Source: Pocillopora damicornis (taxonomy: Eukaryota). From it: a DNA stretch of 64,000 nucleotides. The notes beneath the pieces were generated by a model. It was given only the letters and a program-made list of their open reading frames with translations, was not told the DNA's origin and did no database searches. Both the position numbers and the translations under genes were made by a program. Of this stretch, positions 7,967 to 64,000 are shown one piece after another (position 1 is the first letter of the stretch; every line of letters begins with the position of its first letter). Location: positions 124,001 through 188,000 of the forward strand of contig NW_020846166.1 of the NCBI RefSeq assembly GCF_003704095.1, given 5' to 3'.

Positions 7967-10900
7967 CTGAAAGAAAAAAAATGAAAAATTCAGGGAACGA
8001 GGTCAAGTCCTGTTGAGAACCGTCCTGTATTTTCTCAGGATACAGATACAGTTCCTATCCTATATATTTGCCCCCAACTTCAATATTTCAGAGCAGGGTA
8101 GGTCATCTTATTTAGGATTTTATATTTGATTATGGCCTTCATGTAAAATATTATGTACCATTGTCGCTGACCGGTTGAACGGACAAGTTTCCTATTCCTC
8201 CATCTTGATACAATGCTTTGTAAATAATACCAAACTGTTGGGGTCCCACATTTTGACCATAAACGATAGTCATATCTGCCAAGACACTTCCATTTCTGAA
8301 AAAATGTAAATAAATGAATACTTTCAGTATTAATGTGCTATTGCTAAGGGGATGGTAAATTTATTTATGATATCATTTCAAGCGAACTTCGAGTGATTGT
8401 CGGAACACAAAATCCAAGTTTCAACAGGGTTAAATCAAAGGGCAAAGAAATCACCTCAAGGAGTTTATGAAAACTCAAAGTACACGGATGACAATACCGC
8501 ACTAGGCTGGAGACTCGATTAAAAATCTTCCCTACTAACGATTATAATCAAATTTCTCGTGAATGAATCAAAGTGCGAGATATTGTTTGAAATATCTTGC
8601 CACTTACGTAAACCGATGACATCGCACATCTCGTAGATAGCTCGACTCCTGGCCATACAATACAAATACCTGAGAAAGAACAGCGTATTTGATCAACTTA
8701 ATCACCATTTTGCCTTTCTTGTCCCTTCGTTTGAGTGCATGAGCTAATTTCATCGGGAAATATGATAAAATGTTTAGAGGCTGTGACTGGCCAAGGCTTA
8801 TACTAATTCCTTCAAGTCTTTAATAAGCTTAAATGGTGGGGTGAAAAATATCTATGCATCTTTGATCTCTAGATGCATATCATTAGATAAAACTGATAGG
8901 CTAGAAACTCCCTTCCGCACATTTCGATTGGGGTTACCGCTGAGACTGAAAAACCCTGACCTGTTTTTGTAAAAACGTTTTTGTTTCACTGCTTTGTTCA
9001 AAAGATTGCCAAGGAGAGTATAAAAATGATCCTATGTAGCCAATTTAGCCGATTTAGACGGGACATTTGGAATTTGACTAAACAAAAATTGTCAATAGGT
9101 CATATGTAGAGTGTGCATGCAACATGCAATACTTATTCTGTTTAAAATGATCAAGGCCTTTTATACGGTGTAATCTTCGCAACAGAAACTAAGCATAGCA
9201 ACTTTTCTTACACTTTCTCGTATTATTTTAGACAGGTTGTTGAAGTTATCACTCTCTGGATTGGAAAGATTTACATTCCATTTCATGCTGGTGAAACGAA
9301 CTGTCAAGTTGATTGGGACAACTAAATTGAAAAAAAAAGGAAGAACAGCAAGACCCATGTTATGAATACAATACTTATTTCGAACTTTAAACTCTGTTAA
9401 AAACATAGTTTGTGGAATTAAGATAAACAAATTTCAAGGTAAATGCCTCCTGTGTTCGTATATAAAAAAAAGAAAGAAATAAGTCAATCAGTTTTCTCCA
9501 TCAAGCTGGGAAAAGGTTTCACGTGACCGGAAAGAAATCTAAGAGGACAAGTTAAAAATTAAAGAACGGAGACAATCCTTGCCTTCTTCCAATGTTCTGA
9601 CGTAGATCGGAAGGCTGGAGACACCAAGACCTTGTCTTGAAACACTTCTCACCCAGACGGTATAGTTGACGAACTTTTTGAGTCTTCCAATCTCCACGCT
9701 GTCTTCTGTTACGTTGACGTTAATCATTGAGGTGGTTTCATTTTGACTGTTTGCTGTTTCGTAATAAACCTTAAACTGTATGATATCGGAGTCACGTGGG
9801 ACCCTGTTCCATTTCACTCGAATGCTTTTTGTACTTGAGGCAAGAGCTAGTACGTTTTCTGGAGGTTTTCCCGGGACTGAAAAAAAATCATGAAAACTCA
9901 TTTTCGTAATTTGGAAATGGGATATCTATGACCAGGTCAATGCATGAGCTATAGGATAAATGAATAATTGAAAAAAAGAAAAAAGAAAACTAACAAAGAA
10001 ACAGAACCATACAAAGACGTACTATTGTCCCATATAGGGTGCACTGATAAGTCCCCAACTGAGCCGTTTCTGTAGAGTGCCTGGTAAAGAGTTATAAACT
10101 GTTCCATTTCCACTTGTTGACCAAAGGTAATTACTATATCAACCACGACTTCACCACTGTAATTCCTAAAGTGATAAGAGATAGGTATTAACTCGTAAAA
10201 TAAATTTTGAGCCGTAAACTAAAAAAGGATAACCTTCTCTGTTATTACCTGTCATTGTTACAAACCAGAAGGCAACAACGACACCGTGATGATGTAGGGA
10301 GAGATCTATCAATTTAACGAAATGCAAACGAAAACAAACCCTTAAAACGACTGACTCTTTGACTTAATGACTCAAAGGATGGCTGAATGGAGGAGTGTGG
10401 GACTAAATGAACAAAATTACCTATGGCAGGACCTGCTTTTGGGACATCCCCATTAAGGGGGCACTTACATTCAAGGGACGCAGATACTGTTCCCGACTAT
10501 ATCTGTTCGCCTCATTGAAGGAGCCTCTATCCAGGGACACTTTTTTGAGTCTCAAGGCTCTTCCATAAACGGAAATTCTATTGTTTGGTGATGGTTGGGT
10601 AAGAGAGTTTTGCATGTAACAAGGTTACCTGAAGCGATGGATGACTATATCTCGCAGATGTATTTCATTTGGATAAAGACCTGCCACCTGTAAAAGAAAC
10701 AAACAAGGGCTGATCAGATGTTGCCAAGATGAAAGCGTAGGTAGATTTTCTTTTCATCAGAAAATCTGTTGTATAAGACGCTCCAACCTTACTTACCTGA
10801 GTTTGTAACTGCTTTGTTAGATTCATGAAGAAGATCGATGTTGAATTTAACAACTCATCTGTCCATTCCTTGTTAATCAGCCGTACTGATGCGTTGATAG

Positions 10901-13900: not shown

Positions 13901-16900
13901 TGTGGCCTCTGCTAAACTCCACTTATCCCATGTTGAACATTTCTGCAACCATCACCAAATGGTTGCAAATTCGTTTCGATGGATAAATGTTGAATGCGAT
14001 ATAAAACATAGGCAAATCCACGAAAAATTAAAACGTAAGATATAAACACGTCATTGAAAACTTTGAATCGTAAGCGCCACCAAAATCATAAAAAAGGAAA
14101 AATGCACACGAAAGGAAGTTCTTTGATCTGAAAAAATGAAAACTATTTTCTGTTTTCCAGTCCCTACTGCAAGGCCGAGTTAGTTGAAGGGCTTTCTGTC
14201 CGCCTACGAAGCCCTCTTAGAACTGGCTGGGCCTCTCAGAGACTCGATTATTTTTCTTTTCCTCGCCTGTGAGAATTGGTTGACATATTTCTTAATTTTG
14301 TTTTCATTGGTTTTCTAGTTTCACCTAGATGTGCTGTGGTGATATTGCGGGCTTTAGAGGGAAGCCCAAACCCTTTTGAAGTCACGCGTACGGTCCAAAT
14401 TGTGTACGTGGTACCAGGTTGTAGTTTTGATATTTTAACTTCTGATTGGTTATCATTCACTATGACAGAGCGTGTAATGTTATCAGCGGCTTTGTAAGTG
14501 ACCCTTAGTCCCCAGTTCTCTATCATCTGTTGTATTCTCTCAGATGACCATGACACATGAAGCACCGTTGACCCTCCTACGGTGACGTTTATTTTCCTGG
14601 GCGGCTTTCCTGGAACTGGAAGAGGAAATGATCGTCTTGTTATTTATTGATGCAATCACCTATTTAACGCTGTATAATTATCAAAAAACATGGAAATTTA
14701 TAGTAATTTTCCTCACCAATTGAAACTTGCTTTGTAATGGGCTAATGAGACTTTTCTTGATATTTAACTTACTTGTATCATTGATGACACTTATTGGCAT
14801 TGACCCTAAGCGTTCATTTTCGGAGAGGAAACTGTAAAAATAGTTCGTATGACGGATGTGGAACTGCTCTGAAAACGTTAGACGAATATCTGCGGAAACC
14901 AGGCCACTTGAATTCCTATTCAGGAAGAAAAAGAGAAAAAATTTTTCTTGAATTAACATATTCAACCTGGTTAAAATGATATCTCAACAAAATGAATGAG
15001 GATGTAGGTAGAATGATATAATGATGGCGCCCTTGATACTAATTTATAGTCGTTAAATTTTTCTATCTTAGCGAAAATTTGTAGTTTTGTTTTCTTTTAT
15101 TTTTGACAATAACCCATTGGGTAATGCATTTATTAAGTTAATTGTTTTCGTTTAAAAAATATATATAAATAAAAAATTAAATACTCTTAAAGAACAAACG
15201 GAAACAATTATACAATCATGCTTTTCCTTGGATTGAAAAAGAATAAATATTCGCGAAACCTCTCAGGGAGAGAAATATACCTTTTTTTTTTTACTAAGGT
15301 TCATATTTTGTAATCATTTGATATCTTTTACCTTAGTTGAAGAACTAATACTTGCAGAATGGAAGAAGCATTGCCCAAAGTCAGCAAGACCTGCAACCCA
15401 AGAAAGAGATTTACGAAAAACATATTCATTCAATGAGTTAGTCACGATTATGAATCACATATTTTACCATTGAAAAAATCTTTAAAATTGTAGATAAACA
15501 AGAGGCGAGATAAGAAATGTCAGCTTAGCGCTAAATTAAAGGTATCTAATTTTTTATCTTACTGTTAAAAAGACGTCTTACACATACACCGCATAGGCTT
15601 GTATCAACACACCTGAACTGACGAAATTTTGATTTAAATCAATAGTAAATAGCTCAGTTTTTATTCTTTGGACAGTTCTAGACGTTTTGCAGCTTATTTG
15701 CACAGCTTACTGTTTAAAAACATGTGCATGAAATAACTTACGTTTTGCTTCACGGTAGAAGATATGTCCATGAACATATCACTGCTTCTGTTTTCATAAC
15801 AAACTCTCCAAGACTCATTTTTCAGTAGCAGCTTTACTTGAAAATATAGATTATTGCTTCCTAGAATTTAATTTCGTTGTTAGCGTTAGAAGTAATCTAT
15901 TTCTTTGCTATAACATAGTTTAACGAAGTATCAGGCTTATTTTTGACAGCACGACCTACATGTATAAATATTTCAGGAGGAGGTAACCCTTTTAGTTTGG
16001 AAAACGTTGCAAAGCAATCCATTCTTTGTTTACATACTTTAGAGTTGGAAGGAATCTTTACTCCTCTCTTTGGGAAAAGTAAGTCTACGTTCACGACACA
16101 GACTTTTAAATTTCATCACAAGTTTTTGTTTTATTTGATTGATGCAATTTTTTGTGTAATGAAACAAAAGATTCGTTGAATTTCATAAACACATGATAAC
16201 TGTGGTAGTTAACTTGTGAAAGCAAAGGTGAAGTAAATAGCTGTACAGGAGGACCTTCAATGTACTAGCAGCCCTGAAATCTTAGACATTAAGCAGGAAA
16301 AATGAACTTTTTCTGTGATGAAACAAAAGATTGTTGAATTTCACAAACACGTAGTAACTGTGGACGTAGGCTTGTGAAAGTGAAATGGAAGGAAATAGCC
16401 GTATAGGTAGATATATAACCTTACTAGCACTCCTAGAAGCTCCCAGTATATTACGGAGGAAAAATTATCTTACCGTTCTTTAACTTAGGTGTATCCTGAA
16501 AAGTCGCTACTGTGCTGGTAAGAGACGCGATTTGAGAAGCTGTGGATGGTCGAATGAAGCTTGTAGACAAAGAAGTCGAGGAGAGAACCGCTATACAGGA
16601 CATTGTCTCATTTGGGCCTAGGAAATATGCAAATTATATACAGTAGACATTTGGGATCGGGCGAGTACAACACTAATAGGCCAAGAGAATTCCTTTTCAA
16701 TTGCCAAAATCATTTTCGACTTTTTCTCCTTTCACCCTCCTTCTTCTTTCGTAATCAGATTTTGCGTTTTTTTAGAAAGAGATATGATGGGTAAGCTCCT
16801 TTTTTTTTTTTTTTTTATCAAAAACTAGGGGCCAACTGCTAGATATACCAAATCACACGCGAAATTGAAACTTTGGGTTAAGGTTTGAAGTGTCGCGAGA

Positions 16901-17794
16901 AATAGATTTTTTCCTTTTAGCGACGCCGGTCAGAAGTGTACAATAAGTAAAATGAACTTATTAACCAACGTTAAGTAAGCACCGTCCTTTGGAATCGGAG
17001 AAAAGTTCTTTGGCACTCACTTTGTAACAATTCTGTGGGATGACTGCATAACCTTTAATTTTTTTTTTGGCAATATGTTTTTTGTAGCTGTACTACCTAA
17101 CAAAAAACAAAAACTACCTTTCAGTTGATAAAAGGATCTTGAGTTATCGATCAGCAGTTCACGATCTTTACAGGAGAGCTTCATCAAAAGACAATCACGT
17201 GTAGCTGTTATGTGTTCAAAGGAACTACAGTTGTAGATATTTTGTCGAGCCACTTGAAGACATAGCTGCGCACACTCCCCGACAGACAACTGCTGAAAAG
17301 ATATTTTGTGGTGACCAGAGAGACGAAGGTCAGGATAAGGAAGAAACTTCGCCAGAGAGTCATTGAGGTTGGATGGTGATGTAGCTTCGTCTGAATAACA
17401 CAGAAGGTCTTCTAAATATTTTAATCAATATTATTATGTAATTCTGTGTTTAATGAATGAATAAATGATACAATTTTGTTGCCATAAATAACAGTCAATT
17501 GTTTCAACGCGCCAAGTCATTGACGATGATACAAGCACGACTTGGTTGCTAGGAAACCAAGTTACCAAGGAATGCAATTTAAAAGAAATTGACAAAAATG
17601 TGATATAAAAAAATAGCATTAATCCATCTCATTATGACTTTGCATTAACGCGAATAGTGAAAACAGTGGTAAAACTACTTAAATGACCCAAGCAAAGCAA
17701 AATTAAATACAGTATATGCAGTAAATAGATTACCTTGAACAAAAAGAACGCAAAACGAATAGAATAAAATGCTCATGCAAAACAAAACTGTCAT
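142..17794 (-). CDS. Large secreted or cell-surface modular protein, 3'-partial: signal peptide - PAN/apple - S/T linker - (SEA-FN3)x4 - FN3x8
   Basis: Hand-spliced exons, phases consistent and no stops: 17734-17794 (MTVLFCMSILFYSFCVLFVQ), 17118-17390 (PAN), 16474-16617 (S/T), SEA1 15742-15860/15332-15390/14773-14915, FN3 14325-14615, SEA2 13509-13627/12926-12984/12307-12449, FN3 11239-11541, SEA3 10797-10906/10629-10687/10023-10165, FN3 9583-9876, SEA4 9212-9321/8608-8669/8159-8295, FN3 7673-7966, 6707-7000, 5780-6076, 4913-5203, 3876-4175, 2596-2898, 1838-2140, 865-1167, 142-453. The last exon ends at a GT donor, so the gene continues left of the window. Confidence 0.9.
471..695. other. Assembly gap (N run) inside an FN3-array intron
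   Basis: Run of N. Confidence 1.
3184..3370 (-). mobile_element. Short Penelope-like (PLE-type) insertion with a 13-bp target site duplication and a minimal hammerhead-like core
   Basis: TATTCTACAAATG is repeated at 3171-3183 and 3371-3383. There is an internal partial inverted repeat. The minus strand reads GCT-CTGACGA-AGGGCTAACGCTC-GAAAC-TTC-AGC. Related copies lie at 3653-3810 and 58022-58195. The PLE assignment is inferred from this structure. Confidence 0.7.
3618..3640. repeat. (GATT)n microsatellite
   Basis: gattgattgattgattgattgat. Confidence 0.85.
3653..3810 (-). repeat. Diverged copy of the 3184-3370 element
   Basis: Shares aaggggt.aagttt.taaagaaactgtggtgct.cgtc...aaattggc...aagctgac.tt..gagcgtta...tcagagc. 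Confidence 0.75.
5425..5575. mobile_element. Palindromic MITE (about 150 bp, long imperfect terminal inverted repeats)
   Basis: Left end CCAGGTCCCGGTTGGTCGAAGGGTGGATAATGCTATCC matches the reverse complement of the right end, CCTGGCCCAGTTGTTCGAAGGGAGGATAACGCTATCC. Confidence 0.75.
8159..9321 (-). CDS. SEA domain 4 (three exons), retains the G-S-V motif
   Basis: VPINLTVRFTSMKWNVNLSNPESDNFNNLSKIIRES / VFVLYGQESSYLRDVRCHRF / TNGSVLADMTIVY; exons 110/62/137 nt. Confidence 0.8.
10023..10906 (-). CDS. SEA domain 3 (three exons)
   Basis: VPINASVRLINKEWTDELLNSTSIFFMNLTKQLQTQ / VAGLYPNEIHLRDIVIHRF / RNYSGEVVVDIVITF; exons 110/59/143 nt. Confidence 0.8.
11640..11765 (-). mobile_element. Degenerate tRNA-derived SINE-like repeat
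   Basis: The minus strand has B-box-like GGGTTTCAATCC followed by the palindromic AGCCTGAATTTTTCAGGCT. The family is recognised from memory of anthozoan repeats. Confidence 0.5.
12307..13627 (-). CDS. SEA domain 2 (three exons)
   Basis: IHFRVLLINVSWETQLGNKSSETFRNLSSFIENS / VRVLHQNDSFYNNVSSVSF / RNYRGETMVSIEALY; exons 119/59/143 nt. Confidence 0.75.
14773..15860 (-). CDS. SEA domain 1 (three exons)
   Basis: LYFQVKLLLKNESWRVCYENRSSDMFMDISSTVKQN / VLLTLGNASSILQVLVLQL / RNSSGLVSADIRLTF; exons 119/59/143 nt, phases 1-0-2-1. Confidence 0.7.
16153..16466. repeat. Diverged tandem duplication, two units of about 160 bp, intronic
   Basis: Both units read atgaaacaaaagatt.gttgaatttca.aaacac...taactgtgg...cttgtgaaag...aaatagc.gta.agg...tactagca...ggaaaaat. 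Confidence 0.8.
17118..17390 (-). CDS. PAN/apple domain exon of the modular protein
   Basis: Phase 1-1 exon of 273 nt: FLPYPDLRLSGHHKISFQQLSVGECAQLCLQVARQNIYNCSSFEHITATRDCLLMKLSC, with the PAN pattern eC-x3-C...CxSF...CxL. Confidence 0.8.
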
Positions 17795-26092: not shown

Positions 26093-29000
26093 ATGGAATT
26101 CAGACCAACCTTGTTAGCCGCCTTCAGTCTTGCCTTAATGTTGGATTTCGTCAAGAGCGAGGATCCAATGTAAGTATTTTTTTGATGTCTTACATATTAA
26201 ACCTCATCTGCTTTGAGAGGTTTATTTCATTCAAATGTTTTACTTTGCATTTCAGTTGTAAAAACATGATAAGTGTTTCACTTACAAATCCCCTTAACAG
26301 TGTGCGTGCACGCTAGTTTTTGAACATAGTAACTCGTCACAGAAAACCCGTCAAGAAAGAAATTTTATCAGCGCACATACGTCTGAGTGTCTGTTTGTTA
26401 GTCCACGATCGTTATCTTTCCTTTAGACCAAGGGTAGAAGTGCACTTTGATTCTTCGAAAAAGCGCTTTATCCTTGCAGTTATCATCTCGATCGGGGAAG
26501 TTTACAAAATTTTCGTACAGCTGCCGCTCGAAGCAATGCAAGGATTGTGCAAGTTTAGAATAGTCTTGTGCTTAGCTAATTTCTCTACTTCAATCGAGGT
26601 GATGAAAACACCCTACATATAACACCACGCCTTCTCTTGTATCTGTTTCAGTTCAAAATAAATCAGCCACCTGCACTCCAAATAAAATAGTTTTTTAAAC
26701 AGAGAAAACAGCATCTATCTTTAAACGAAAAACCGTAGTCGTCTTCTTTTGGTATTCGTTACAACAATATAAAGTATAAAACCCGATGGATATTTTGTTA
26801 AGTGCCATTATCGATAAGAAATTTCGAAAACGCATTTTCCACATATTAAACCTTTTTGCTTTTGTGCGAGGTATTGAATTAACCTATGAGCAAACGGAAT
26901 TATTTCTCTCAGGGAAAAGTACAAGAAAACGATGGAAGAGGCATACAATTTATCGGTGGCGATCAACAACAATTTGAAGAATTACGATAGAAAGTTGCGG
27001 CCTAATGCTGGGGGTAAGCGTTGAATTTGTATTTGAATTTTTAACTTTGAATTAGTACATGGTAGTTTACTTCACCTCGAATATATTCAACCATGCATGC
27101 ATTTCTCATCTTGTATCTTCGCCCTCTTATTGAAGCTTTCTTGATTTACAAACTGCTGAGAATACAGACAAGTCTTTTGTAAGATTTTAACTCCACATAT
27201 CATCTGAATTGAGAATAAAATTTATCATTTGCTAAATATTCGTGCAGGAGAGCCGGTCATGGTCCAAGTAGAGTTCAAAGTTATTTCATTCGGTGAAATT
27301 AAGGAGGTGAACATGGTGAGTTGTTGTTGACTTTAAAGTTTCTCCATTGAGGATAAGATAGTCTGTTCTGATTGCTACGCGTTGCAATGTCAGTATTATA
27401 TTTCTGTAGCATTTATCTTCCGCGCCTTTATTTTGCCCTTCCGCCATTTTTGAACTCAGTGGTTCGTCTTTCATAGCATCGGATTACATTGTAAGCAAAT
27501 CACCGGTCAATGGATATTTTCTAGTATACAACCCAAACTTAAAAATATGCATGAACCACTTTTGTAAAACAGCCTTGAGATAACGTACCTGTATGGTACA
27601 AGTTCTTGAGGGTCGGCACAACTTGGGATATCGACTCGTATCGATTTCTTCGACGTAGGATATTCTTTGTTGGTAAGTGGATACCAGTGGAAATCCTGAG
27701 CCGTGGAATTTGCTAGTAAAGACAGTTCGTCGCGAAAACATACACAATGCGAGATATACATACCATAAGCAAAAGCAACTTGGTAAGAATTGTCCTCAGA
27801 AAGAGATCCATAAGGGGCACTTCTTCTCTCAGCTTTGGTCTCTCTCACTTTCAAGTCATAAAGCAAACAGGCAAACAGAAACTATGTTACACTCCGTTTA
27901 TTGACCGGCTGTAAGAGAGCACATCAAGAGCTAAAAAACTATATCATGTTTAAGTAATATAGGGCCGAATGACATGTACAAAGGAACTAAACAACGAAAA
28001 GTTGATAGAATCAGTAGGTCATTTGACTGAAAATGAAAAAAAAAGGTTAAATAGAATATGATTTTAAAATAGCATCCAAATGTTAATTTATTTTCTATAA
28101 ATTTTATCAAAGAGGAGCGGTTTCACTTCAAACTACTGATGGTGGTGTTTATAACAAATTTTAGGAGTACAGCATGGACATATTCTTCCGCCAGTGGTGG
28201 AAAGATCCCCGAATGAGGCATAATTCTACTACTCCATTTAACATGGCGTTTGACCCAACAAATGTCTTCTGGACACCGGATACTTATTTCTGGAATGTTA
28301 AACATGCAAAATATCACTACGTTACCAGAGAAAACATGCGGGTCAGAATTTCTGCAGATGGAGAGATATACTTCAGTACGAGGTGCACATAGAGTTTTTG
28401 TTCATTATTTATCAGAACACGTGTTTTTTGTTAAGGGCTATACGTATACATTGTCAAAATTAATTTTGAATTTTTTTGGAAGGCAGTTATTATCGTGTCG
28501 AAGGAAGAAGGCAAAGTCTGTTCTTAAGCCCGGTGGCCCTCACTACGTAGCAGCTAATTCCTGTTACCATCGCATGAAGCGGCTGGGATTATTTTTTTCC
28601 CAGTGGATAGTGTGCTAGTCCATACATCGAAGCTAAGCCCCTCACGCGGTTTTTTTTTAAGGAGGGGGAGGGAGGGGGTAGATAGGGTTTTTGCAGTTGA
28701 CTGGTTGTGGGATAATCACAATTTATCCTCAGAGTTGTGTCAGGTTTTCCTGAAAATTTACCAGCATTTTGTTACGCTCTTTATTCACCCTGGGTGAATA
28801 AAGTATCTTTCTCAAGAACACAACTTTACGACTTATTAAATTGCAAAGGGCGATTGAAAAGTGACAACATGACGATCTCAGCCAAGGCTTGATGATGTCA
28901 ATACTTCCAAGACGAGGAGTAGGAAGAGAAAAGTCCAAATTAAAGAAACACGTTTTTCATCACACAAAGGTTCAACTGATGAGATGAAAAGTTGGCTTTT

Positions 29001-31529
29001 GAGCGCTCTCAGTATAGTCGGTCGGAGCGCAGGAAAACTTTTTATATCCACGTCCAACAAACTCCTTTTTTATTTTCTCTAATATTATGTTCTGTTGCAA
29101 CACCCAGAGGAAAAAGTTTACTTGGTACAATATCTATGTTATTTGTTTTGTTAGGATAACGATTGTGGCTCAATGTGACATGGATCTGCGCCTGTATCCA
29201 ATGGATACCCAACACTGTGCATTGAGACTCGAGAGCTGTAAGTATGGAAATGGACCAGGTGCAGAGTAGCGGAAAATTTGCTCCTTAACTTTCGCTACTG
29301 CGAAGTGTTTAATTTTTTCCATTTGACAGTCAGACTATTGTTACAGTGCTGAGTTTCTTCTGATGATTTATGTGAATTTTTTTTTTTTACTATTTTGTCC
29401 CTTATGGGGCTTATAGCAAACTTCGGGTCGAAATATCAAAGGTAATCACGTAAGATAATTAAGCAAAATGAGTCAGATAGTGAGGAATCGAAAAAATTAT
29501 AAAAGATAACATTAGACTGCCTTAATCTTAAGGAAACGCGCACACCAGATAGCAAGTGGTTTTCTTTTGTTTCTAAATTGATGAAAGTGTATTCACGAGG
29601 CTCAAGCGAAACATATGCAAAAATGCAGTACGAATCTTCCTTTCACCGATTGCAGTTCTCGCCGATTGTGGTTCTAAAAAAATTACCCGGCCAATCCTGT
29701 TTCTCTGTTTCTCCTCAGATGCCCACACAGTGGCAGACGTAGACTATAAGTGGAAAATTGGTAAAAATAAAGGGATCGAGATTGTCTCCTCAGAGTTGGC
29801 TCAGTTTGATCTTCTTCGCGTTGTGACTGAGAATAAAGCAAGCACTAATAGCAAAGGTGAGATAACACATGTATTCTTGGCGCATATCCCCTTATTACCT
29901 TAACTTTTCCCAGTGAGGACCGAGGGGAAGGGGAGGGGGAGGGAGGGTCTAGCCTTCTCAGCTTATCATTGCATCCTCTGCGTGAAATACCCAGCCAGGA
30001 AGTCTGCTTCTACCATATGCGAGACAGTGGCTTCTCTTTACCCACCCAAAAATCTCTTTTAGTGCTAAGCTCTAATCTATGACAAACCATTTTCCACTGT
30101 TTAACTTATAAAGAAACTAAACTTGTGATATTTGCTCTCTATCCTTAAAAATCTTGAATCGGTATATTGGAATTTTATCAATGGCCGCATGGTTACTTAA
30201 CGCATATTTGACTCATTCGAATAGGTCTCTATAGTGCCTCACGTATTCCACGAGTAACAAAGTTACTGATCCTCTGTTATTCCTTTTCCACTTCAAACAA
30301 CTCTGTTATTTCTAACTATTTTAAGTATTTTAAGTATAAAACAGAAGTACACTTAAATGGCGTCCATGGTTTTCTTCGCTCAGGTTCATTTGCCAAATTA
30401 GTAGCGGTGTTCTCCTTCAGACGTCGTCTTGATTATTACATTTCATCCGTGTACGTACCGGAAGTCATCTTGGTAGTGTTGTCATGGTGCACGTTTTTCA
30501 TCACACCCTCAGCTGTTCCGGCAAGAATATCTCTCAGTATCACAACTATTCTGACCACCATCCTACTATCCAGCACCTTAAATTCAAATATTCCAAAGGT
30601 AAAACGCACGGAAATTGCTTACTCGGGGCTGTTATTTAACCGTGTTCTGACCCATGCTCATCGAGACGTTGATTTTTACCAACAATGTCAAGTATGCTTA
30701 TCGCTAGCACGAGAAAAGAATGATTCATCTCAAAAAGATATGCATAAAACATTTCTATGACAATCGTACATCTTTAAATAAACCTCGTTCAATAACTGGC
30801 CTTTAGCATCTAGAAGTTAAGCCCTAGAAAATGTTAGATCATACGACCAAGGGTGTGTGTCGGACGAAAGTCGTTCCCAGGCTGTAGTAATTGTTAAACT
30901 GTTACTTTTAAATTTTAGGTCAGTTACATGAAAGCCGTAGACTACTTTATGCTAACGTCCTTCGGCTTTATCTTCACGGCTCTGGTGGAATATATTATTG
31001 TGCTGAACACCCCTGAGGCATTTTCAGATAGTTTCAACTGCTTCGAGAAAAAGCAGAAGAATGAACCAGTTCAAGTTCAGGTAACTTCTGTTCAATGCTG
31101 TCCTTGAAATAACACCAACGAGTTAACTCATTGGCATAAATTCGGGGTCAGACAGTTTTATTGTGATCTTGCGTTACAAACTTCGTCTTACGCAAGCTAG
31201 ATCCCCGGATTCTTCTTTTGCTGCCGTTTTGAAAAAAGCTTTTATCTAGCACGTGTAAGGAGGAAGGATTGGCACATTTTGTCCTTGTGCATAGTTTATG
31301 ACCTGTTTAGTAAAAATTGTGCTTATTGCAGGACGGACCAGAGGAGTTGATTCTTAAAATCAATGCCTCCCCGAAGATGCTGGACCTGAGCAAGCCCAGG
31401 AAACCTCCTGAAACTAAACCGAGCCCTCCCAAGGATCACTGGGTCGACAAATGTTCCCGTATCCTTTTCCCCGCGTTTTACGCTCTCTTCCTCATGGCAT
31501 ATGTCATACATTACAAGAGAAAAGAGTGA
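26093..31529 (+). CDS. Cys-loop ligand-gated anion channel subunit A (GABA-A/glycine receptor-like, putative glutamate-gated chloride channel), about 419 aa
   Basis: Nine GT-AG exons: 26093-26169, 26913-27013, 27248-27315, 28165-28382, 29155-29237, 29719-29856, 30384-30598, 30919-31080, 31332-31529. Signal peptide, YDRKLRP, WTPDTYF, Cys-loop CDMDLRLYPMDTQHC, M2 PARISLSITTILT, PKVSYMKAVD, M4 VDKCSRILFP. Confidence 0.93.
28520..28825 (+). mobile_element. Degenerate SINE-like interspersed repeat in an intron of subunit A
   Basis: catgaagcggctggga...gtgctagtccat...caccctgggtg...aagtatctttctcaagaacacaac resembles a common anthozoan SINE body (recognition only). Confidence 0.4.
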
Positions 31530-33703: not shown

Positions 33704-36700
33704 CTAGTCCAACACATGTCCCTTGGAGTCGCTCTCCTCCCTGAGCGCACTGTAGTATATGGTGTACGCGACGAGAAATGTGACGTACAAAGTTGGGAAG
33801 AGGAATCTTGACAATCGGTCGATCCAGTGCGCCTTAGTTTTTGTTGCTACTGGCGGCGTTAAGGGAAGTTGCTGTTTTGGTTGTGGCTTCAGCTTGATAT
33901 TTCCCTTGTTATTCCTGATTCTACAAACTCCTTCATCCATCACTTGCACAATCAGATCAACACTTCCCTTGCTGTGTGCCTACAAAGAAGAGAAATCTTT
34001 CTTTACACTTTGATCACCGGGATTTTTGGTCATTGGGATTATCACAACCAGGAAATGTGGTGTCAGCTTATATAAAGTGATACATAAAGCGCTATGATTG
34101 GATTATATGAGGAAAAAAAACATTTGACGGCCAGAAATACATCGACATGACCAAGCTTTGAAAGCCTTCAAGGCTAGCTCAAGAGTTTCCTTCTACTATT
34201 CTTTTAATCCCTTCATAAGGAAATTGTTTCCAGCCACCTGATTGATAAACAGAGCTCATTAGAGACCAAAAAAGCCCACAAATTACTTCAACAAAAAAGT
34301 CCACGTTGGAAAGTCTGGGAGTAAAATTACAAAATATTTGAAACTTCCGACAACCTGATCTTACGTAACGAATGATAATAGGAATCCTCTGTACATCTGC
34401 CAAACTGAGGGCAATTACAAATTATTCAGCCGTGCCGTAACCGTTCAATAGAGAGATAAGAGAAAATAGTCGTTTTTAAATGATTAAAGTTGAGGATAAT
34501 CTTTTCTCTCTACCACTTACTTCACATTCCATTGCAATTTCCTTTTTGTCTCCTCTTTTGTCCTTCTTGAACCAGGAAGGTGGAGAAAACACTGGACTGG
34601 TGTTGAGGACGATGATGAATTCGATTAAGGCGGCGAAGATGAAGCCAAAAGAGGTCAGCAAGAAATAATCAACGGCTTTCATGTAGCTGACCTTAGGCAT
34701 GTCTCTGTTAACGTTGCCTTTGAGTAGAATGGAGGTTAAAATAGTGGTGATACTCAAAGCCACTCTGGCAGGAACAGCTGAAGGGGAGATGAAGAAGCAA
34801 CACCACGACAAAACAACCAGGACTACTGCTGGGACAAATATGGCAGAAACAAAGCTCTCTGTGCGCCGTCGAAATGAAAACACCGCCTTGAGACTTGCGA
34901 AGGAACCTAAGAATGTTTGTAGGAAAGAGAGTCGTTTGATACACACTCGGGCTTCGCTACAATTCTCTAAAATTGGTGCATTTCTTCGTTTGGTCTTTAG
35001 TCTGTTAGCTAGCATTATTTGGCACAGTGAAGAGAGCCAAACTTAATTACTTAAGCCTCGCCCTCCTATTCAAAGTACTTTTTTTTATCTCCTCATGTCG
35101 TTCTCCTCAGGGAACTCGTTGGTGAAATAAACGTTCCAAAGAATAGTTGTTAAACTTGAATTTCTACTTTTCAATTTCTCAAGCGCAAATCAACGTTTTA
35201 TCTCAACTTTTGCGAATTGGATCACTCCTCGGTCCAGTTCTGAGGATGATCCTATATTTATGTCTTGAAAAGCCCCCTTATCTGTATCATTTTTCGTCCA
35301 GTTATGTAAAAGATGTTGTAAGAAAGAATTTGTGAGAGATAAAGTACGGTTAGTCTCACCTTGTTGCCTCGAGTATTATTTATACTATCTAAAAATTACA
35401 TTAGCCTCAAAATAAAACGAAAAAGAAAACTCTGTACAACGAAGAAAAAGTACAGGAAGAAAGTTTCTAGAGAAACCTCATTATTACACTGGTTTGATAC
35501 CAAGTGAAGCTCGTTGCTTTTGTTCGTACAGATATGAGAATTACGGCCATTCCACTAAGTTATACCGTCCACTAAATTTTGCTCATGATTTTATCCGCTT
35601 TATTTTTAAAACTCACCTTTACTGTTCGTCTGCGACTTGGTGTAAGTTTTAACATCAGTCAGATCAAACTGAGCCATTTCCTTCGACACTATCTCTACAC
35701 TTTGTTTATCTCCTCCCTTCCAGCGGTAATCAACATCTGCTGTCGTATACGCATCTAGAATGAGACGAAATAAAAAAAAAGTAAAAAGAATCACAGTGGA
35801 CTTTGGCACAGTCCAGTTGATCTGTACGGATTCGATTCGTATCAGAAGAACTGTAGGACAAATTTCCACATATAACAATTGTCATAAAGAGAGAAATGGC
35901 TCGGGAAGCCGCACTAGCATGCAGGAAGTTGCATGTGTTCCAAAATTACTTCGGATTATGTGGTTTGTTAACAAAAAATCTTGTCTTTGGTTGCTGTGCC
36001 GTTGAATACTTACAGCTTTCTATGATAAGAGGACAATACTGAGTGTCCATTGGGTAAAGGTGCAAATCCATATCACATTGAGCTGTTAGTGTTATCCTGG
36101 GAGAACAATAACAGAAAAGGTCTCAAATAACAATGTTGATCCTTCTGCTCTAAGGAGCGACCCAAAAGTACTTTCTCCTTACAAAATCAGTACAAGTTTA
36201 TGTAAAAGAGAACTGAGGGGAAAAGAAAGGTATTGACACGGGGACATCATTCGATTAAACTCCAAACTTAAAGGCTAAAATAAAAGTTAATGAAGAGGTT
36301 TGGCAGATAGAGCGGGAGTTGAAAGAGTGTATTTAGATCTTGCGATTAAAATTGAGGCGGACATAGAATGAACTTTTTCAAGACTGAAATGAAATAGTTT
36401 TGAAACTTTCTCTAAGAAAAAGATGCAGAATCGTCAGATCATCGTTGCTGCGAGTTGGAATTATTTTTCTTTTGTTTTTATTAGTGCAAATTTACCTTGT
36501 GCTGTAATAAATCTCCCCATCGGGCGATATTTTCACTCTCATATTCTCTCGGGTGACGAAATGATATTTAGCATCTTTTACATTCCAGAAGTACGTATCT
36601 GGAGTCCAGAAAAGCTTTGTGGGATCCGCTGCCATATTGAACGGTTTACTATAATTATTCTTAAACCTTGGATCATGCCACCATTGTCGCATAAAAATGT

Positions 36701-37767
36701 CCATCGAGTACTCCTAAAAGACAAAGAACGTACACTTCACTTTTCAATCAAGACTTTTTGGGAGCAAGATTTTCTTATTCCCATAAATCATGCTTTTGTT
36801 GTATCGAAAAAGCATAAATTGTTCCTTGATTTAAATCAGGAGTGGCTGATGTCATGGTTAGTTACCTGGGGATTTAGTCGCTTTTAGCTTCCTCGGCTTA
36901 GGTTTACTTGTTTACTCGGTAAAATGGTGATCAGTTTTCTTCACCTACAGGAATACGTTATATTATAAACTTAACTTAAATGCACGATCTTTGGATCTGC
37001 TGTTATGTAATTTAGGCCCTTAAGTCAAAATATGCGACCCTAGTGAGGATAATACAGGCATACCATATTAGCTTCCTTGATTTCTCCAAAGGATATGACT
37101 TTAAATTCTATCTTCACGATGACAGGAGGTCCCCCTGCATTTGGCCTGACTTTCTTGTCATAACCGGTTAGACTACGGTTTATCGAGCGCGACAAGTTAT
37201 AAGCTTCAATCATGCTACTTCTCACTTCGCTTGTAATTCTGAAATCAATAAAAAATAATTTTTCAGGAACATTCTTACCTACGAAGGTAACAATTTATTA
37301 CACCTGGTCTCAGTGAACCTGATAAAGGACCAAATCCTCTGAGAACTTCAATAATATTTTCCGTAAGCACTGTAGCAAATTTTATAATCCCAAATAGCCT
37401 CTAGGAAAGTGTTCTTGTACATTCTGATGATAAATAACTATTAGTTGCGTACATTTCCGTGTTAAGAGAATCAATATTCATTATGCTAATATGCTTAAAC
37501 TTATTCTTTTAAATAATTGAGTTTGGTATTTTTCATAAGCCTACAGTGTACTATTTAGCTGCTAAACTAATTTTGAGGCGGTGTGGTACTCTGCAAGCAT
37601 ATTTATCTTTGTCATAAAAGCTAATAGAAAACTATTTTATTTTCAAAAACGAGAATTATAGGACGAGGTAGATTCATCCTTAAGACTTACTCTTTACCAA
37701 GCCCGTAAGCAACAAGACTGAGGCACATCAGAAGAGCTGCAGCTATTCGAAGACATGAGGTTGCCAT
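33704..37767 (-). CDS. Cys-loop ligand-gated anion channel subunit B, about 450 aa
   Basis: Seven exons: 37691-37767, 37064-37238, 36496-36713, 36014-36096, 35617-35754, 34521-34906, 33704-33979. Cys-loop CDMDLHLYPMDTQYC, M2 PARVALSITTILT, M4 IDRLSRFLFP. Confidence 0.93.
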
Positions 37768-51600: not shown

Positions 51601-54600
51601 ATGAGGTTTCCGTCGACAATATTATTCTGGATGACTTTAGGAAACGCTATTTGGAGATTGGCTGAAGCAGAAGAAGAAAAGTAAGATATTATTTCATTCC
51701 GTTAAACTTTTCACACGAGCCCTTACGAAAAGTTATTTTCAAACAGTATTATGTGTAGGAAAATGTTCTGTGTTCCCTGCTGGTATATGATAAGAAAATA
51801 ACCGACTTATTCGGCCATACATACTTCGCCATTGGGGATAAGAAGGAAAACATAGAGTTATGATATTTCCTCATATCTGATCTGTAAGGAGTACGTTGAT
51901 TAGCTCTATTGTAAGTAATCACAACCAGTTCCTCTTTTTGCCGACCTCTGCCACAGTTTGCCTTCTCAAGTGCGATGATCTGTTCTTCGTAAATAATATA
52001 TGTTTGAACGGCATGCAGTATTGATCTTTTTCAAGCTGATATTGTTGTACAGAAAGCCACTAATATTAACCATAGCAAGTGAACAGCAATGCCAGTAAAG
52101 GGCAAGACAAATAAAAGTTTTAATGAAGATGAGTTCAAGCGGCTCGGAAAAAACCCTTTATTCTCCTCTCTCACATCGCAACAGGGAATCCAGGCCCTAC
52201 TTTAAATAAACGAGTTGCACTTAATAGGATAGGAAGTGCAGACGTTTTTAGACGCCGATGGCGATCAAAGTCCCCTTACAGCAATAATACGGGAAGTTCC
52301 TGTTTTTGCATTTAAAACGAAATAGCACAAACAAAAGATACCTGTCATGTCCCTGGAAAAGAAAATTTGAACTTCCTGTTACCCTTCTCCTCTCAAAAAC
52401 ATCGTCACAGAAATTCAGTTTCATAATATCCTGCCCACCTACGACTTCAGCCCGATGGCAATTCATATAAAAACGACCGATGCACTAATTAGATGCACCT
52501 GATGTCGGCAAAAGATCATTGTCGTGTGCTTACATATGCTGCCATTAAAACAAGATGAAATAGAATAAGTTAAAATCATGTAAAATGAAATAGTATAACA
52601 AAATCAGTTAAAAAAAAATGGAGTTGGCATCACCCTTAAAACTTATTTAGATCCAAGAACATTTTATCTCTGTCCTTAACTCTACTATGTGCTGTGATTT
52701 AATTTCAAATATGTTGTAAAATTTACCATCTGAATGAGCAAATTAATAATTTGATCGATAATTAGATAGATCCATGAATGATTAAAGGCAAAGTTTTTTA
52801 AGGAGCCTTTATTCTTTGTCAAGGGCTCTTATGAGAAATAAATGAATTAAATGATTTTCCGACCTGTTGATGCAACCACAGGCGTCCCAAGCTCACGTGG
52901 TGATGCTACCAAATGAGGCATTGATCCTCAAAGGTAAACTTCATTTGACGGAATTACCGAAGAGAAAACGAAGCTTGAAAAAACTGTGGCCTCGATGGAA
53001 CACCAATAACGTTTACCTTGTCATCATTATGTGTCCAGGTGTTCGAAACACATCTAAGCATGAATTTACTTCAGACTTTTCTTTATGTAATTTCGTAATT
53101 GCATTGCCCCTGAAGGGAAAACTTTTTAATTCATTATTTTTACATTTACATATTGAAAGTGACCTCGAGGAGCAACGCATGTTTATGATTTTTTCGCGTT
53201 TTCCATGATAGGTCCCTTAAATATTATGAAAAGTCGATGGAAGAGGCCTTACAGCTTGCCAACAAGATAAATGCTGCTTTAGCTGTGCATGACAAGAAGG
53301 TTCGACCAAACGCTGGAGGTAAGAAGATAAATCAGGAGACATGTTAATCTTTAAACGAAAATCACTGATAAAATAGATAAGAAAAAAAAAACCCTTCAAA
53401 CTAGACAGAAGTCGGGGATGCTTCCATAGGCTGTAGTGATTTTTTCCTCCAATCCCGATAAGGGAATGGATGAGCTTATTGATTCAGATGAATAACTCTT
53501 AAATTGTAAGACATAGTAACCGATGTTTCTCCATTATACTCTACTGCACACTAAGACTTTCACTGAGCCACATGGACTAATTCTCTCTCTCAGGTCCTCC
53601 TGTAATGGTTGATGTAGAATTCAAGATCATTTCGATTGGTGAGATTAAAGAGGCTAGCATGGTAAGAGATAAATCTACTATAGGATGGAAAGGTTTTTGA
53701 TATCAAAAGAGTGAATTAAGAATTTAGAATATGTAAATTGACGAATAAATTATTTTATCCCCTCTGAAAGGAATACACAATGGATATCTTCTTTCGTCAA
53801 TGGTGGGTTGATCCAAGGCTGGCGCACAATTTCAGCACTCCTTTCAACATGGCAGGGGACGCTACCAAGTTGATTTGGACACCAGATACATTTTTTTGGA
53901 ATGTAAAAGCTGCCAAATACCACAAAGTAACAAGGGAGAACATGAGAATCAAAATCCACGGCGATGGAAAAGTGTATTTCAGTACGAGGTAAGACTAAGT
54001 TCCGGGCTCAAACAAGTTTCCCAAGAAGGTTATTGGTTTTTTAATATTTCAGTGCTAAAGCTGGTTTTCCTTGTTTTGAATGCAGGATTACCTTTACGGC
54101 TCAGTGTGATATGAATCTTCGCTTGTATCCAATGGATATTCAAGTTTGTCCATTGACCATTGAAAGCTGTGAGTAGGATGTTTCAATCTCTAACGACCAG
54201 GATGACTTCATCAGTTGCTTTTAATGAATTCTGATTCTCTTAAGAGAAGTGACTGCAATTAAGAACCCGATTGTTGAATAGATGTTGATACACCAATTGT
54301 TACTCACCTTTCACTATTCATCACTAGATGCACATACCACAGCTGATGTTGATTATCGATGGAAAGGAGGAAAGTCACAGGGTGTTGAAATCGTCTCTAA
54401 AGAAATGGCCCAGTTTGAGTTTGTTGGTGCGAAAACCTCAACCAAAGCAAACACCAATAGTAAAGGTAAGATAGGAAAAGCTAAATATTTTGCGAAATAT
54501 CGTTGAACCATGAAAATAATCCACATGAAAATTAACATTCTTGGCTTTACGATGAAACTGAGTATTTTGATTTTAGCAGTGATATTTTTTGTTCAAAGAC

Positions 54601-56433
54601 CGGAGGCAAATCCGATGTATTACATTCCTTTCCTCTTCAAACTTGAAATGTATTTAAAAAATTTTGAGAGTACTCCATAGAAAAATAAAATAGGAGAGTT
54701 ATTGATTCATTGAAAACTGTGCTATCCTTTGTTTTAAGGTTCTTTTGCCAGCCTGCGGGCATTTTTCACATTCAAGCGTCGCGTGTCGTACTTCATCACA
54801 GCGACCTACATGCCTGCTATGGTCCTTGTGATCCTCAGCTGGTGTTGCTTCTGGATCACCCGCGCTGCTGTACCAGCCCGAGTCACCCTCTCCATAACAA
54901 CAATTTTAACCACCATACTACTCTACGGTTCGGTCAATTCTAATATGCCTAAGGTAGTTACTCAGTTGTCAGACAAGTGAATGAATTTGCATCTTCAGCC
55001 TAAGGAATGTCGAGGGCGTTAAGCTGTGCCATTGTATTTTAAATACTATCGAATTCAGTATCTTTTTGAAAGTCCTCTTGTTGGAATCAGAAATATTTTT
55101 TGTTGTTAACAAGGAAGGGTGTGGTTTGGGTGGTAATCTTGGGTCTGATTTATGAAGGTTAGGCTTGTCGCTGTCTCACCATAGCTCAGATTCTTTTTCT
55201 TCTTTTTCTGGATTATTCCGTTTTTCTTTCCCAAAAATAATTCAAAGTGTCAAATTCTAGTTCAACCTTGCTTCAAACAAGCGTTAAAAGCTTTTCAGCT
55301 CTTAAGCTCTTCAGTGAGTGAAAAAGCTACTTTATTTTGTGCTTGACAGAAAAATAAAAAACTCTGATGCATACTTCGATAATTTGTTCCAAATTTTATT
55401 CCAATTTTTCAACAGGTGAGCTACAGTAAAGCCATTGACTACTTCCTCATGACATCATTGGGATTTATCTTTATGTCACTTCTGGAGTTCATTCTCGTCC
55501 TCAACACGGATCCACGCTTCTGGACTCAAAAGCGAAGAGAGCAAAAGGCTGAAAAATTGAAGTCACTTTACAAAGTAATGACCTAAGACAGCTTGTCAAT
55601 ACTGCATTCTGTAAGGCATTGTTAAGTGCTCGGAGGCCATCCATAAGGCCGCCCTATTTGCACCTACTTTAGAGACATACGCTTTAGAGAAATTTGCTCT
55701 TTTTTCTTAACCCTTTCACCTGTCAGCTGGAAACGAACGGCATGAAAAAGTTTGAAAGATGAACAAAAGGGTAATTGTAATGCTATACGAATCATTAAAA
55801 ACGTTAAGTGGAAACTGGAAATAACTGTTTTTAAAAGGATTTGAAATCTTTCACAAAAAGGGACTTGTAGGAAAGCATTTGGGATTGTACATACAGCTAA
55901 TTGACGCGGTTACTGGTATTTTCGATGGATAGCAGTGCCAACCATGGCAAATGGACAACCACAATTCATTTATTATCATTTAGTCTACTCAGTTTGTCAG
56001 AGCTTAATGATGCAAAAGCTAAAACATGGTAAAATGCCAAACCTGACGGCGGCGTCGTGCAAACTATTGCTTCTTCATTTCATTTTTACTTGGCAGAAAA
56101 ATAACGTAGAAAAGAAAAAATTGGTAATGCAATATCGTTTTATTTATCACTCAGGAAACTCCAGCCGAGACTGTTGTCACGCTCATGGACGGCAAGGCTA
56201 AACCAACCGATATTCTTAAGGAAAGCACAGACATGACTCCTCTTAATGGCCCAACCAAAGAACGTGAGAAGGATCCACCAAAGGCACCAGAAGCACCACC
56301 AGCTGCCAAGACCCATTGGATCGATTACGTCGCTCGTATTCTTTTCCCCATTGTGTACTTTTCCTTTGTAACCTTCTATTGGATATACTACATTAACCAT
56401 CCTGAGTCAGCCATGGGTGGAGTTACTGAGTGA
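51601..56433 (+). CDS. Cys-loop ligand-gated anion channel subunit C, about 448 aa
   Basis: Nine exons: 51601-51680, 53212-53318, 53594-53661, 53771-53988, 54086-54168, 54328-54465, 54739-54953, 55416-55574, 56155-56433. Cys-loop CDMNLRLYPMDIQVC, M2 PARVTLSITTILT, M4 IDYVARILFP. Confidence 0.93.
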
Positions 56434-63400: not shown

Positions 63401-63542
63401 TTCTTTTTACATTAAAGAAATATGTGTCCGGAGTCCAGAAGAGCTTGGAAGGATCTCCTGCCATGTTAAATGGTGTGCTAGAATTATGCCTGAACCTTGG
63501 ATCGTACCACCACTGGCGGAAGAAAATGTCCATCGAATAATC
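60423..63542 (-). CDS. Cys-loop ligand-gated anion channel subunit D, 5'-partial (first exons lie beyond the window)
   Basis: Exons 63325-63542, 62832-62914, 62222-62368, 61620-61987, probable 61419-61466, possible 61230-61256, and 60423-60776. Cys-loop CDMDFRLYPMDTQHC, M2 PARASLGITIILT, M4 VDIISRIIFP. Confidence 0.9.
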
Positions 63543-64000
63543 CTGGTTTTTAAAGAAATGAAAGCTAATCAGAAGTCCAAGTAAAATTGGTTTACTACTA
63601 TGGCAATGATGTAGCTATGAGTTGTCGCTAGTAATTGCGTGAACATTGGGTTTGTCAAGGAAAGGTGACTATGATTATTAATAGAAACATCTTTGCATGG
63701 GCTCAGTTGTCACTGCTATACTGGAGTAGAGCACCCTGGGGAATATTCTCTACGCCTAGTTGTATGTCTTCTCCCGATTAACAATGATCTTCAATCTTCA
63801 TTGTAGAATCTCCATAAGGTGTGAGTTGATAGATTTTTAATTTAGATGACTCAGCGTCGGTTGATTGAGTTACTATTCACTTATCTTCACTCTTCGTTGT
63901 CACTCAAAAACTATCTCAGTAAAACAACTGAGGTAGGCTACTGCATGCTATAAAGTGCAATCCCTTGGGACTTGCCATGGAAGACAGCACTCAACAGATA

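Follow-up and report, generated by a model that had tools for sequence, protein, structure and literature searches.

A single short Gly-Ser turn among the four SEA domains of a Pocillopora damicornis protein with a predicted GluR0-like channel module

SEA domains with the motif G/S[V/I]VV cleave through strain and the Ser hydroxyl, after which the two halves remain together and force can unfold the domain, as described in an excerpt of PMC13643018; the same excerpt proposes a protective dissociation under force for MUC1, MUC3, MUC12, and MUC17, in which the G/S-hydrophobic motif lies in the β2-β3 turn. Gly insertions near the site strongly impair SEA cleavage (passages of PMC10327162). In the case of IMPG1 and IMPG2, which contain several SEA domains, cleavage occurs in the C-terminal SEA-2 alone, the sole SEA with the motif, for which the consensus GSxxV is quoted (excerpt of PMC9478142). 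MUC16 has many SEA domains and one predicted site near the membrane, in the penultimate SEA, which is not used (excerpt of PMC4456727). Here, we describe a gene of the coral P. damicornis on the minus strand of a 64,000-nucleotide stretch (the window, G000:C2801:124001-188000), which encodes a PAN domain, a Ser/Thr-rich linker, four SEA-FN3 units, and eight further FN3 domains, followed by S1, M1, a pore loop (TMTTVGYGD), an inner helix, S2, one more membrane helix, and a tail. The gene model, extended beyond the left edge of the window, comprises 36 exons with an open frame of 2280 residues. We propose, with a probability of roughly one half, that SEA4 provides a pre-cut adhesion ectodomain on a GluR0-like K+-filter channel module, with a head that can detach under load.

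The SEA exon borders were set by splice signals and by the collinear Nematostella ortholog protein rather than by RNA reads. The four turns listed by the initial annotation are all recovered on the minus strand (Table 1), and each is split by a phase-2 intron just 5' of the Asn codon. The third SEA exons measure 143, 143, and 143 nucleotides (nt) in SEA1-3 versus 137 nt in SEA4, and an alignment anchored on the intron and on strand β3 places two more residues in the turns of SEA1-3; the exon borders thus agree with the lengths and the longer loops claimed earlier. The second exon is 62 nt in SEA4 versus 59 nt in SEA1-3, and its extra codon aligns outside the turn. At the position of the SEA4 Ser, SEA1, SEA2, and SEA3 possess Leu, Glu, and Glu, respectively, while the Ser found two residues past the Asn in SEA1 and SEA3 forms an N-x-S sequon and is out of the cleavage register. 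The claim that only the C-terminal SEA retains G-S stands as well, as SEA4 alone combines a short turn with G-S-V (TNG/SVLA), and the hallmark used for autoproteolytic SEA domains, a short turn in which hydrophobic residues come after Gly-Ser, is present in SEA4 and absent from SEA1-3. A second NGSV within SEA3 (~10068) was rejected as a cleavage site because it lies outside the turn and is not conserved. All four repeats match the family SEA profile at E < 1e-27. With Pfam SEA (PF01390), the first exon of SEA4 alone gives E 2e-5 and 25.1 bits against a cut-off of 26.4, and the spliced Nematostella ortholog gives 42.5 bits (E 8e-11). The AlphaFold model of the ortholog SEA4 (pLDDT 61, best Z 4) is too poor to judge the turn; a structure-atlas model of the SEA of paralog P0018 matches SEA clusters at TM 0.70-0.77. 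PDB sequence searches with the ortholog SEA4 and with a SEA third-exon profile returned nothing useful.

The S1 exon has 26 matches in the P. damicornis genome, and paralog SEA domains were sought 10-40 kilobases upstream of each. We found 15 paralog genes with a SEA, nine with a short turn and six with a longer one; no SEA was detected in that interval above 11 of the 26 matches. All nine short turns read G-S-V, none with an Asn before the Gly, and the motif occurs in none of the six longer turns, three of which were assigned by eye. Counting the gene described here, G-S-V is present in 10/10 short turns versus 0/9 long turns of the family (Fisher p 1e-5, with paralogs that are not independent). 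A glycosylation sequon was rejected as the family-wide reason for the Ser, because the nine G-S-V paralogs have no Asn before the Gly. Among 28 stored proteins from other records, 22 SEA domains comprise 11 with G-S, one with G-T, one with A-S, one with S-S after a longer loop, and eight long turns without the motif; the 11 with G-S, which come from cnidarians such as Hydra, Oculina, and Stylophora, read G-S-V/I. Wherever a SEA is present, it sits atop an FN3 stalk, 2-15 FN3 domains above S1. The SEA turn of one paralog (L084:1125-1256, G000:C88) reads RPGSVEA, near the MUC1 site, with an acidic residue at a usually hydrophobic position.

The Nematostella ortholog, LOC5515158 (XP_048584451.1, annotated as 'uncharacterized protein'), has the same architecture. 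Its channel module is 50.8% identical to that of the P. damicornis gene versus 36% or less for other paralogs, and it is the sister of that gene in a channel tree built by a quick method (support 100). The first three SEA turns of the ortholog read FWNVSSQVYN, FSPIENSSVLV, and FRNSSRGVLT; its SEA4 reads FRNASVVA in two records (P0094, P0166) and FRNGSVVA in an older one (P0167). The Gly/Ala difference between P0094 and P0167 sits at residue 907, the records differ at 28/2000 aligned residues, and the difference fits two alleles, a sequence error being also possible. No account of what a Gly-to-Ala change does at the cleavage site was found in the literature searched. Two metagenome contigs (L117, L118) carry coral-like orthologs from two other species; both have NGSVLA in SEA4, whose third exon shows ~80% nucleotide identity to P. 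damicornis, and the SEA3 turn of L118 is NDGGKVVV. Two further candidates, L119 and L120, were set aside as chance matches (38% identity, no exon context). The conservation of Gly-Ser in orthologs, on which the initial annotation had staked its reading, is thus found in L117, L118, and one Nematostella record, whereas the other two Nematostella records have A-S; over the five ortholog records the Ser is kept in 5/5 and the Gly in 3/5. The SEA3 turn varies across orthologs but the SEA4 turn does not. On comparative sequence grounds, the short G-S-V turn of SEA4 is not a chance motif, because NGSVLA recurs in L117 and L118 and G-S-V tracks the short turn among the family's SEA domains in the genome. 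The eight SEA domains of the P. damicornis gene and the Nematostella ortholog form one clade (97/93) in a tree from which P0175_1 and P0038 were left out and in which most other branches are weak. The repeats therefore arose by internal duplication, with one copy keeping the motif, and because the clade spans both orthologs, the duplication predates the coral/anemone split.

We found that the channel module occupies ten exons to the left of the window, which encode S1 through the last membrane helix and the cytoplasmic tail. RNA contigs from four studies cover every one of the ten introns between the last FN3 exon and the gene end, each in three or four of the four runs, and the FN3-to-S1 joint is present in contigs of 3/4 runs. 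One RNA contig of 4258 nt extends 2714 nt past the last FN3 exon; the stretch from FN11 through SEA4 would need a similar 2694 nt, and judged by length the contig is consistent with a single transcript. The FN3 stalk and the pore were identified with Pfam fn3 and Ion_trans_2. No fifth SEA was found downstream of SEA4, and the idea of one was rejected, as nine FN3 domains run straight into the channel module. An N-gap at 471-706 of the window is taken to be intronic because the Nematostella ortholog has the same nine FN3 repeats.

The filter motif TMTTVGYGD, which contains the T-x-G-Y-G of K+ channels, spans an RNA-confirmed intron. The pore region aligns with K+ channels, and T-[VLIA]-G-[YF]-G is kept in 25/28 family sequences, with no recognisable filter in the alignment of the other three. 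The AlphaFold model of paralog P0035 (pLDDT 78) best matches the GluR0 binding cores (1iiw, Z 20.1, root-mean-square deviation 2.8, 209 residues; 2pyy, Z 19.8), followed by amino-acid-binding proteins (Z 17-18.7). Foldseek ranks full-length ionotropic glutamate receptors (iGluRs) first for this model, and the structure atlas returns cnidarian clusters and then bacterial proteins with SBP_bac_3 and a pore. Furthermore, the bacterial-type GluR0-like protein P0181 aligns from M1 to S2 with an HH probability of 99.1. A split S1/S2 clamshell flanking the pore is accordingly predicted for the P. damicornis protein by homology with the modelled paralog. The third membrane helix lies at residues 2134-2152, and the ectodomain comprises 1750 residues. 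A T-C-x-C motif marks the direct junction of stalk and S1; across 19 paralogs, S1 has three invariant cysteines and a fourth that is nearly so. In GluR0-type receptors, an S1 arginine binds the ligand carboxylate. With an anchor to P0181 set by hand, this position is Gln in the P. damicornis protein and, over 28 sequences, Gln in 11, Asp in 5, Ile in 4, and Arg in 2; MAFFT aligned the stretch differently. With Arg in the minority at this position, a conventional mode of glutamate binding is improbable, as far as the alignment can tell. A PDB sequence search with the S1 profile gave nothing useful.

By sequence, the gene belongs to a cnidarian family in which an adhesion ectodomain is joined to a GluR0-like channel module. 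An S1 profile matches 435 representatives at E < 0.001. The ten long matches examined (nine from Nematostella, one from Hydra) are named uncharacterized, sidekick-1, or PTPRQ, and further members occur in Oculina, Stylophora, Acropora, and Actinostola; 'Cubilin' is another annotation within the family. Ion_trans_2 was detected in 19/21 long family proteins scanned; PF28033, listed on 5/8 family proteins, may be a curated family for part of them. The ectodomains contain FN3, SEA, TSP1, LamG, MAM, F5/8, TLDc, or CUB-Ig. No published description of such a family was found in searches confined to literature outside subscription journals; in passages of PMC12226733 GluR0 figures solely as bacterial, and those of PMC9080433, on anemone mucins, do not mention ion channels.

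There are similarities and differences between this protein and the known systems. Compared with IMPG1 and IMPG2, which it resembles in having several SEA domains with the G-S motif in the C-terminal one alone, it is not a retinal proteoglycan with the SEA beside the membrane and without FN3 stalk or channel. Unlike the membrane mucins, it lacks a large PTS domain, nine FN3 domains separate its SEA4 from the membrane, and the consensus P4' Val is replaced by Ala. With GluR0-type K+-selective receptors (1iiw, 2pyy, P0181), it shares the split clamshell around M1, pore, and inner helix, and the identical filter motif. GluR0-type receptors contain only two full membrane helices and no large ectodomain. 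The bacterial-type P0181 has this layout, from which the P. damicornis protein departs with its extra membrane helix, cytoplasmic tail, conserved S1 cysteines, mostly replaced S1 Arg, long adhesion ectodomain, and intron-rich animal gene family. The animal iGluRs, including the delta receptors, are the best full-length Foldseek matches and agree with it in how the membrane segments are ordered, the last helix included, but in the P. damicornis protein FN3, SEA, and PAN replace the amino-terminal clamshell and the pore contains a K+-channel filter. Delta receptors have an adhesion role, and polycystin-1 undergoes autoproteolysis. For GPR110/GPR116, polycystin-1, Notch, and the bacterial RsgI SEAL domain, a pre-cut, non-covalently held ectodomain on a signalling module and a response to pull have been proposed (passages of PMC10327162 and 10.1101/2022.04.04.487063); structure-atlas matches also point to this group. 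In contrast to the adhesion G-protein-coupled receptors (GPCRs) with SEA, the P. damicornis protein has no GAIN domain or seven-transmembrane domain; the role of effector falls to an iGluR-like pore, and cleavage would take place far from the membrane. The Nematostella ortholog differs in its record-dependent NASVVA or NGSVVA and in a basic insert in one stalk FN3 (P0094 residues ~1600-1640). This insert, which the coral repeat lacks, contains the furin-like sites RRRR and RSRR, where a second, lower cut in the anemone is possible.

We consider it likely that SEA4 self-cleaves at Gly-Ser (residues 813/814). The cut would occur during folding, driven by strain through the Ser hydroxyl as in MUC1, and the two extra residues would relax the turns of SEA1-3 and leave them as intact spacers. 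The predicted products are a head of ~92 kDa, which counts 813 residues without glycans and contains 31 sequons, and a remainder of 164 kDa made up of stalk and channel. The head would bind matrix, mucus, or a neighbouring cell via PAN, would be held non-covalently, and would probably be lost under load, while four subunits would form a K+-conducting channel. SEA4 would then limit the load in one direction only, releasing the head before damage reaches the channel or the membrane. This role is the most economical reading because the cut site lies on the load path that links the adhesive tip in series with the channel, yet as a force fuse for the channel SEA4 remains a tentative proposal that falls somewhat short of even odds. 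The initial annotation had seen a single break point shedding PAN and three SEA-FN3 units, and the predicted site would free exactly these; what would stay behind is not the FN3 stalk alone, as then thought, but a stalk on a GluR0-like channel, and so the meaning of the fuse changes.

Several observations weigh against this interpretation. SEA4 has GSVLA, which departs from the strict consensus GSxxV or G-S-[V/I]-V-V; Ala replaces Gly in two of the three Nematostella records, and the NSSVLV of Nematostella SEA2 is a degenerate second site; within the ortholog group the SEA4 Ser belongs at the same time to an N-x-S sequon that never varies. The motif is absent from 6/15 SEA-bearing paralogs and a detected SEA from 11/26 S1 matches, so a fuse is not essential to the family. 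FN3 domains may also unfold at forces similar to those of SEA release. The pattern of cleavage in the last SEA only is already known from IMPG1/2, and the unused MUC16 site shows that the motif does not guarantee cleavage (excerpts of PMC9478142 and PMC4456727).

The best surviving alternative, though an unlikely one, is that SEA4 cleavage serves maturation, or a controlled discharge of the head into matrix or mucus, as in IMPG2 or dystroglycan, and that the ectodomain merely positions a ligand-gated channel. The outer fragment of IMPG2 is released and relocates (excerpt of PMC9478142), and the role of SEA autoproteolysis outside the mucins is called poorly understood in passages of 10.1101/2022.04.04.487063, which we count in favour of this alternative together with the intact clamshell of the P0035 model and the family members that have just CUB-Ig or one FN3. 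The SEA, however, is far from the membrane, atop a long stalk and in series with the load path, and the rarity of Arg at the hand-anchored S1 position (2/28) also speaks against this alternative. We hold it similarly improbable that SEA4 stays uncleaved, all four SEA domains being spacers and G-S-V an ancestral tight-turn sequence held by turn geometry and an N-glycan sequon. The Nematostella A-S, the Ala at P4', the Asn before the site in all four ortholog species, and the MUC16 precedent (PMC4456727, in part) would fit such a spacer, but Ser follows Gly in all nine sequon-free short-turn paralogs and is absent from the register position in all nine long turns, and turn geometry alone would not be expected to demand Ser. 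A non-conducting adhesion receptor or scaffold, with the channel part vestigial or signalling without ion flow, would suit the poorly kept ligand Arg and the 3/28 sequences without a filter, and is very improbable given the filter kept in 25/28 and a pore region that aligns with K+ channels.

Table 1. Features of the P. damicornis gene. Unlabelled coordinates are window positions; a raised dot marks the intron within a turn.
Feature	Coordinates	Strand	Remarks
Candidate first coding exon	17734..17794	-	Hydrophobic, signal-peptide-like, phase 1 end; putative, from sequence scan
PAN domain exon	17118..17390	-	Pfam PAN_1 E 4e-8, above cut-off
Ser/Thr-rich linker exon	16474..16617	-	Longer Ser/Thr-rich stretch at the equivalent place in the Nematostella ortholog
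SEA1	14773..15860	-	Exons 15860-15742, 15390-15332, 14915-14773; long turn QLR·NSSGLVSA
FN3 no. 1	14325..14615	-	
SEA2	12307..13627	-	Exons 13627-13509, 12984-12926, 12449-12307; long turn SFR·NYRGETMV; weak Pfam SEA match
FN3 no. 2	11239..11541	-	
SEA3	10023..10906	-	Exons 10906-10797, 10687-10629, 10165-10023; long turn RFR·NYSGEVVV
FN3 no. 3	9583..9876	-	GC splice donor inferred
SEA4	8159..9321	-	Exons 9321-9212, 8669-8608, 8295-8159; short turn RFT·NGSVLA
Gly-Ser codons, predicted autoproteolytic bond	8286..8291	-	Residues 813/814 of the 2280-residue model; kept in L117, L118
Nine-FN3 stalk, first exons	142..7966	-	7966-7673, 7000-6707, 6076-5780, 5203-4913, 4175-3876
Nine-FN3 stalk, remaining exons	within 142..7966	-	2898-2596, 2140-1838, 1167-865, 453-142
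Channel module	G000:C2801:123411-116095, left of window	-	Ten exons

The Nematostella ortholog also starts with a hydrophobic leader. The intron after the third FN3 exon has an apparent GC donor (window 9581-9582) by sequence. Downstream of the gene and within one intron (L002:335-1000, 7015-7350), an extreme contig depth together with numerous loose ends marks high-copy repeats. The initial homolog search returned only P0001 and P0002, which are translations of the same DNA; both read through exons and introns of the P. damicornis gene with TGA read as Trp and are gene-calling artefacts. Tandem partial S1 exons occur in single paralog loci (G000:C785:114051 and 116391; C629:160705 and 162282) and represent either local duplication or an assembly artefact. 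At least four Cys-loop genes adjoin the gene, at 28165-31526 (+), 33707-37294 (-), 53768-56430 (+), and 60426-63614 (-), which by eye we take to be GABA/glycine-receptor-like subunits. An anthozoan expansion of such subunits is described in part of 10.64898/2026.01.28.701697.

The SEA motif pattern alone is ordinary SEA biology; the host architecture is unusual. If SEA4 cleaves, the protein would combine an iGluR-type channel with an antenna that is cut in advance and able to come off, which bears on how cnidarians sense touch, flow, or contact and on how K+ channels relate to glutamate receptors. Together, the four repeats and the paralogs with and without the motif form a natural series for the control of SEA autoproteolysis by turn length; the Nematostella Gly/Ala difference, if truly allelic, would allow cleavage rates to be compared in a natural setting, and genetic work is feasible on the Nematostella ortholog. 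The joint of stalk and S1 could couple pull to the clamshell. By analogy, and as a speculation that we regard as unlikely, this undescribed family might consist of tethered force-sensing K+ channels on a glutamate-receptor chassis, in which the FN3 stalk would be fixed to the first lobe of the clamshell, pull on it would gate the pore, and the self-cleaved SEA would set the force at which the tether is released and the channel resets. If true, an ion channel would here work on the principle of the adhesion GPCRs.

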